A stretch of 6,626 nt of DNA from a virus (lineage: Duplodnaviria > Heunggongvirae > Uroviricota > Caudoviricetes), in the IMG/VR virus record IMGVR_UViG_2734482581_000014; one strand, 5' to 3'. Below are positions 6,047-6,626 of the stretch, piece after piece. Under the pieces are notes generated by a model. That model worked only from the letters and a program-made list of their open reading frames with translations, did no database searches and was not told the origin of the DNA. The translations under genes and the position numbers were made by a program. How positions within the stretch are numbered: position 1 is the stretch's first letter; each line of letters starts with the position of its first letter.

Positions 6047-6626
6047 TATTTACTCCTTGCCGGGTCATAAGCCTGCCAGGTGATCTCGCCGAGCACCGGA
6101 AGCTCGGTCTCCCCCAGGTCAATATCCGATGAAGGGACGATTAACCGGTGGGCCACTTCACCAGCAGACAAACTGATGGCCTCACTGATTCTGGACAGAT
6201 ACATACGCCCCTCTGGCACACCATCCCGTAACATCAGTGCATTCAGCTCTGCTTTTATTGCAGTCCTGATCTGCGGTGTGTCTTTCGATAATGCAATCGT
6301 CATCGGGATGACTTTTTCTGTGGCACCGAATACATACAATCCGCTTCCGGCAACAGGTGCCAGAGGAAGGATGTGGTCCCTGACTGCGTTAATCACGCTT
6401 TCATCCGGGGCCGGGCGTTCCGGATCGTTTGTCGCCACCATCACGCCAACCGTTCCAGTGCCTTTCCAGTGTCTGAAAGTCCATGCACGGTTAATACCCT
6501 GAACTTCTTTCGCCCAGATAACATAATCAGGGTCTGCGCCCCCGGTGATGCTGCCAACTTACTGATTTAGTGTATGATGGTGTTTTTGAGGTGCTCCAGT
6601 GGCTTCTGTTTCTATCAGCTGTCCCT
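6046..6626 (-). pseudogene. Baseplate J-like protein, 5'-partial at the window edge, with an in-frame TAA at 6559-6561
   Basis: The C-terminal 132 aa (track ORF 6046..6444, first start GTG 6442-6444) resemble the C-terminal part of baseplate J proteins. The same frame stays protein-like upstream (VGSITGGADPDYVIWAKEVQGINRAWTFRHWKGTGTVG) back to a TAA at 6559-6561 and is open again beyond it to the window edge. J proteins are normally about 300 aa or more, so a nonsense-disrupted gene is more likely than a 132-aa product, but the window ends too soon to be sure. Confidence 0.55.

Follow-up and report, generated by a model that had tools for sequence, protein, structure and literature searches.

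The stretch of DNA considered here (the window, 6626 nt) is the complete draft contig CWZT01000195.1 of assembly GCA_001254075.1; a literature search for the contig accession CWZT returned no match. Its two ends are repetitive. Positions 1-95 are the end of an IS4 element with 100% identity to annotated IS4 copies, and on the other side the contig terminates 83 nt into the multi-copy element IS1. Short-read assemblies of Shigella genomes, which are rich in insertion sequences, usually break within these elements. The 5' part of the window, before smpB, carries ratB/ratA on the minus strand; smpB (1006-1488) and the tmRNA gene ssrA (1703-2065) follow on the plus strand. The phage portion is a Mu-like tail module in which every gene is located on the minus strand. 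It comprises a DUF4376-like gene (2264-2638), a tail fibre gene (2589-3857, PF08400), the tail fibre assembly gene tfa (3881-4276, PF02413), a second fibre gene (4429-5481), an intact baseplate gene of the Mu gp48/YmfQ family encoding 196 amino acids (5456-6046, PF10076, E = 2.3e-25), which belongs to the same operon and lies downstream of IS1, and, from 6046 upward, the 3' part of a baseplate J / Mu gp47-family gene (PF04865). The exact gp48/YmfQ protein is recorded in 3758 blocks of the assembly collection. The tail-fibre end of the prophage adjoins the 3' end of ssrA (2028-2264). In CP032523.1 (7868-8269), similarity to the window ends at position 2028, within the 3' end of ssrA, which suggests an att-site duplicate or a rearrangement in that strain.

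The J gene is represented by a pseudogene fragment at 6046-6543 on the minus strand, corresponding to codons 196-360 and the stop codon, as delimited by BLASTP and by Pfam family PF04865. In the BLASTP alignment, 164 of 165 residues are identical to residues 196-360 of WP_000785589.1, a 360-amino acid protein of E. coli FDAARGOS_944, and nothing upstream of G196 (window 6543) is matched. The fragment covers positions 132-255 of the 255-position PF04865 profile (E = 1e-24, 87.7 bits versus a cut-off of 21.1), compared with positions 2-255 in the full-length relative. A megablast search with window 5400-6626 against 5426 complete E. coli genomes retrieved the J-gp48 region in 62 records; the J-containing matches listed all start at query position 80-107, mostly at 84, which is window 6543, and among them none enters the first 83 query bases. 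The homology to J ends at 6543. The fragment has no start codon ahead of a GTG at 6444, and the 132-amino acid ORF that begins there (6046-6444) lies entirely inside it. In the preliminary description, a product of this size had been judged far shorter than a typical J protein, which agrees with the 360 residues of the full-length relatives; with just codons 196-360 adjoining the downstream gene, a complete coding sequence of this subfamily of about 360 amino acids is not present.

A TAA triplet, 16 nt beyond the limit of J homology, is found at 6561-6559 on the minus strand and shares the reading frame of the J-like ORF ending at 6046. The minus-strand reading in the J frame is GQLIETEATGAPQKHHHTLNQ*VGSITGGADPDYVIWAKEVQG..., the peptides around the stop being ...GAPQKHHHTLNQ* upstream and VGSITGGADPDYVIWAKEVQG... 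downstream. Position, frame and flanking peptides had been given correctly in the preliminary description, where the J frame was considered to be protein-like on both sides and the triplet to be a nonsense mutation of J. This interpretation is not upheld, because the sequence upstream of J is that of a mobile element. Window 6544-6626 is the left end of IS1 in plus orientation, namely, the first 83 nt of the 768-bp element, reaching the end of the contig. Searched alone, it shows 100% identity over 83 nt (83/83, E = 5e-35) to annotated IS1A/IS1B transposase elements; the same 83 nt are present in 4963 of the 5426 complete E. coli genomes, with a median of 10 places per genome having any, and each search yields thousands of places, on chromosomes as well as on plasmids. 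They also agree at every position with nt 1-83 of the complete IS1 that occupies the same site in a near-identical locus (L007, see below).

The left terminal inverted repeat (IRL) of the element, GGTGATGCTGCCAACTTACTGAT, is located at 6544-6566 on the plus strand, as compared with the reverse complement of the right repeat, GGTAATGACTCCAACTTATTGAT. The reported ochre codon (6559-6561, minus strand) is the complement of IS1 nt 16-18 (TTA) inside this repeat and not a codon of J. The VGSIT codons following the TAA are the complement of IS1 nt 1-15, and the 21 codons preceding it are the antisense of IS1 nt 19-81, which takes in the start of insA. That gene starts with a GTG at IS1 nt 56 and runs off the window (6599-6626, plus strand), its first 28 nt being included; the complete reading frame of 91-amino acid InsA was translated from a full copy and is present as a 91-amino acid ORF in the related contig AKNC01000076.1 (L002). 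That the TAA might terminate a long antisense ORF of IS1 was also considered and ruled out, as the frame entering the triplet stays open for just 40 codons in a full IS1 copy from a near-identical locus. No plus-strand ORF of at least 50 amino acids ending at the TAA is found in L002. In intact relatives, the residues before G196 are ...RYYYIPQ, as opposed to ...HHHTLNQ*VGSIT in the window. Neither outcome foreseen in the preliminary description applies: an alignment of J-family members does not run through the stop, the relatives ending at 6543 with IS1 beyond, and the TAA does not terminate a different gene with J homologues aligning from about 6444 onward, since J aligns from 6543 and a mobile element lies upstream. 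That the TAA falls into the J frame at all is a one-in-three accident of the landing position of the element. The triplet belongs to the inverted repeat of IS1, and J is devoid of an ochre mutation. The accompanying caveat, according to which some 65 nt upstream of the stop are weak evidence of continued coding, was apt; no more is visible because the short-read contig breaks inside the multi-copy IS1, and for the same reason, the contig stopping 83 nt into the element, merely the 3' half of J can be seen.

Related loci were found by exact look-ups of proteins encoded in the window. The 132-amino acid ORF retrieved L002, and ten further loci came from large chromosomes, so that 11 were examined. 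AKNC is listed in a published table as S. sonnei 3226-85, lineage II (PMC5447701), and CP022672, among the ten further loci, is S. sonnei strain 866 (PMC6128377). The window is assigned to S. sonnei by way of these near-identical loci, two accessions of which (AKNC and CP022672) are tied to strains. From the IS1 junction down to window 2427 the loci are 99.9-100% identical to the window, with the exception of L009, for which this extends down to 3163 only; the identity of L002 across the junction is 99.9%, and L007 and L011 are 100% identical to the window across 4200 bases beside it.

The organization on the far side of the junction is evident from these loci. L002 reads ...ATTCCACAG GGGGGCGCA, then IS1 (IRR...IRL), then GGGGGCGCA GACCCTGAT..., that is, the 5' half of J, the element, and the 3' half of J. 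The 5' half (codons 1-198) is located about 770 bp beyond the junction, across IS1, in the related genomes. The 9-bp sequence GGGGGCGCA flanks the element on both sides in 11 of 11 loci; its right-hand copy is contained in the window at 6535-6543 (minus strand), where it constitutes J codons 196-198 (Gly-Gly-Ala). In every one of the 11 loci, each of the two junction 30-mers has a single exact match. The IS1 copy is oriented antisense to J. Its length is 768 bp in eight of the loci, and L002, L003, and L009 have copies of 767, 769, and 449 bp, respectively. Within the element, insA starts at nt 56, and the frameshift site A6C (AAAAAAC) is located at nt 307. Its terminal repeats are 23-bp imperfect inverted repeats beginning with GGTGATGCTGCCAAC and GGTAATGACTCCAAC, of which the IRL is present in the window and the IRR at the far junction in L002-L012, and the gene calls for the 232-amino acid InsAB' protein in the related loci carry PF03811, PF12759, and PF03400. 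Thus, the terminal repeats (IRL in the window), the length of about 768 bp with the insA/insB' -1 frameshift, and the 9-bp duplication (the latter two in the related loci) all identify the element as IS1. A target duplication of 9 bp is typical of IS1. The targets of IS1 typically lie in an AT-rich context, whereas GGGGGCGCA is GC-rich, and this was counted against the IS1 explanation.

In L009 (CP029794.1, 3055-3503), the IS1 within J is internally deleted, and the region corresponding to window 2429-3162 is also absent; these changes indicate further strain-specific decay. The exact 37-nt junction had no match in a genome collection holding one genome per species, and it may be guessed that Shigella is without a representative of its own in that collection.

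In silico removal of IS1 together with one repeat copy restored the 360-amino acid J ORF in 10 of the 11 loci, with H238R as the sole difference from the E. coli relative WP_000785589.1. The ORF was not restored in the eleventh, L005, where an additional frameshift is located close to the 3' end of J. In its present state, the 5' part of J is a 224-amino acid ORF consisting of J residues 1-198 and 26 residues read from the right end of IS1. The earlier view that the J ORF is truncated and the gene inactivated is borne out by these data, the fragment in the window being residues 196-360 of 360 of a J gene split by IS1 (J::IS1). The uninterrupted site reads ...CCACAGGGGGGCGCAGACCCT...; a single copy of GGGGGCGCA and an intact 360-amino acid J are found in E. 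coli FDAARGOS_944 (L001) and in gene L52 of the functional phage phiP27. The intact relative prophage of FDAARGOS_944 is not inserted at ssrA; a frameshifted gene for the T3SS effector ipaH follows it (L001 10874-12515), which links this phage type to the carriage of ipaH. Among the PHROGs families, J (L001 5416-6495) is matched in its N-terminal half by phrog_2103 (162 positions), in its C-terminal half by phrog_1608 (192 positions), and over its full length by phrog_6; split or truncated J genes may be common among the phage records used to build PHROGs. A J that is naturally divided into two genes, as the separate PHROGs halves might imply, was ruled out, the break coinciding exactly with IS1 and the target duplication.

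Simple transposition of IS1 into J codons 196-198 of a defective S. sonnei prophage almost certainly explains the stop. A point ochre mutation within a continuous J, with coding carrying on upstream of 6561, would account for the presence of TAA in the J frame and for the 21 upstream codons being free of further stops, but no J homologue is aligned upstream of 6543, the sequence is IS1 at 100% identity from 6544 onward, the intact relatives have ...RYYYIPQ at this place, and the real 5' half of J follows some 770 bp further on in related genomes; such a mutation is, therefore, exceedingly improbable. Slightly more room, if still very little, is left for an IS1-mediated deletion or rearrangement, for instance by IS1-IS1 recombination, in the course of which the source strain would have lost or relocated the 5' half of J together with the tail genes upstream of it. 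The far side is seen only in near-identical genomes, the window ending inside IS1; L009 has an internally deleted IS1 of 449 bp at the J site, and rearrangement of Shigella genomes at insertion sequences is described in PMC8072062. What speaks against such an event is that 11 of 11 related assemblies, including the lineage II strain S. sonnei 3226-85 and complete genomes, preserve the two junctions, the matching 9-bp duplications, and a 5' half of J that is otherwise intact, and that the 4200 bases beside the junction show 100% identity between the window and both L007 and L011.

The least probable of the alternatives, with a likelihood close to nil, is an assembly artefact, namely, a chimeric short-read join of an IS1 end to a J fragment, with J being intact in the genome. 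The window is indeed a short-read draft contig with repeats at both ends and has a 249-bp deletion found in no other locus; yet 11 independent assemblies, closed chromosomes included, show exactly this junction together with a proper 9-bp duplication.

According to the transposition model, a 768-bp IS1 would have entered the J (Mu gp47-like) gene of a phiP27-like prophage residing beside ssrA in Shigella sonnei. Insertion at codons 196-198 would have duplicated the 9-bp target GGGGGCGCA, and with IS1 being antisense to J, the left inverted repeat would have come to abut the 3' half of the gene. The J frame, if read backwards out of the gene, would then enter the inverted repeat and meet VGSIT and the TAA, in frame by chance. 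Of the two junctions, the window itself displays one; the remainder of IS1, the second copy of the repeat, and the 5' half of the gene are known only from the other assemblies.

Proteins of the J family are components of the baseplate wedge and required for tail assembly, and insertions of IS1 are polar on downstream genes of an operon. Given this general role of the J family, a prophage with a split J would be expected to be unable to build tails, and, given the general polarity of IS1, expression of gp48 and of the downstream tail fibre genes would probably be reduced. Apart from H238R relative to the E. coli protein, both J halves are otherwise undamaged in the S. sonnei loci examined, with the exception of L005. 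It is conceivable that the split module is kept for a reason, either since domestication has affected the J(1-198)-IS1 fusion or the tail genes that remain, or since rare precise excision of IS1 via the 9-bp repeats would restore J and act as a reversible switch. Such a function is very unlikely. A recent clonal origin would explain the conservation of the J halves more simply, and the tfa ochre codon as well as other IS1 copies argue against any restorable phage.

Further lesions are present in the tail module. The ochre codon that had been noticed in tfa is genuine: a TAA at window 4378-4376 (minus strand) replaces the CAA codon for Gln18 of the 181-amino acid protein of E. coli FDAARGOS_944, and it is found in 12 of 12 S. 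sonnei loci, the contig of the window (L014) included. In L002, two full tandem IS1 copies (3185-3952 and 3961-4728, together 3185-4728), 8 bp apart and flanked by the 9-bp duplication CGTTAAAAC, reside in a hypothetical gene between the tape measure and DNA circularization genes, upstream in the same tail module. The window, furthermore, is devoid of 249 bp (83 codons, in frame) at 2427/2428, within the DUF4376-like gene at 2264-2638; E. coli L001 and the remaining S. sonnei loci (11 of 11) all contain these 249 bp. Through this deletion, the boundaries of which share only the microhomology GCA, a 207-amino acid protein is shortened to 124 amino acids, and the exact 124-amino acid product is recorded for this contig only; the loss could be genuine and specific to the strain, or else an error of short-read assembly. 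Inactivating lesions in structural genes of the kind that define a defective prophage are, in summary, J::IS1, the Q18 ochre codon of tfa, and the IS1 dimer of L002. It is by these, and not by a stop codon in J, that the proposal of a decaying tail module is supported, and the module is probably non-inducible.

The main value of these results lies in a correction, in that an apparent in-frame stop near a contig end is the junction of an insertion sequence and not a point mutation. Short-read contigs of IS-rich genomes such as those of Shigella commonly set this trap, because assemblies break inside the repeat. The shared J::IS1 insertion could act as a lineage marker; it raises no new question. 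No element adds more to the insertion-sequence burden of Shigella than IS1; direct IS insertion is the cause given for 50% of S. sonnei pseudogenes, and each of the 24 pseudogenes that are conserved throughout S. sonnei is broken by insertion sequences, in most cases with no other mutation (PMC7373316). The IS1-driven decay of a prophage gene in S. sonnei is an ordinary instance of this already known biology.

In comparison with known systems, the element itself, which is of the IS1A/IS1B type of E. coli and Shigella, does not differ in kind, the window holding its first 83 nt only. As in the IS-interrupted Shigella pseudogenes of Hawkey et al. 2020 (PMC7373316), IS1 is the sole inactivating lesion of J and is common to the S. 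sonnei loci examined; unlike the interrupted genes of that study, the target is a structural gene of a prophage and not a metabolic gene. The closest sequenced phage is the Stx2e phage phiP27, with 91.6% nucleotide identity over 65% of window 2264-6543. Its tail module contains the same Mu-like baseplate genes, and phiP27 and the E. coli relative share with this prophage the gene order gp44-gp45-gp46-J-gp48-fibre-tfa-fibre. Over residues 196-360, the product of phiP27 L52 (NP_543104.1) is identical to the window fragment at 158 of 165 positions. In contrast to phiP27, the prophage described here is located beside ssrA and carries IS1 insertions, the nonsense codon in tfa, and, in this contig, the 249-bp deletion in the last fibre-associated gene; and while J is unbroken and encodes 360 amino acids in both phiP27 and FDAARGOS_944, it is split here by IS1 at codons 196-198.
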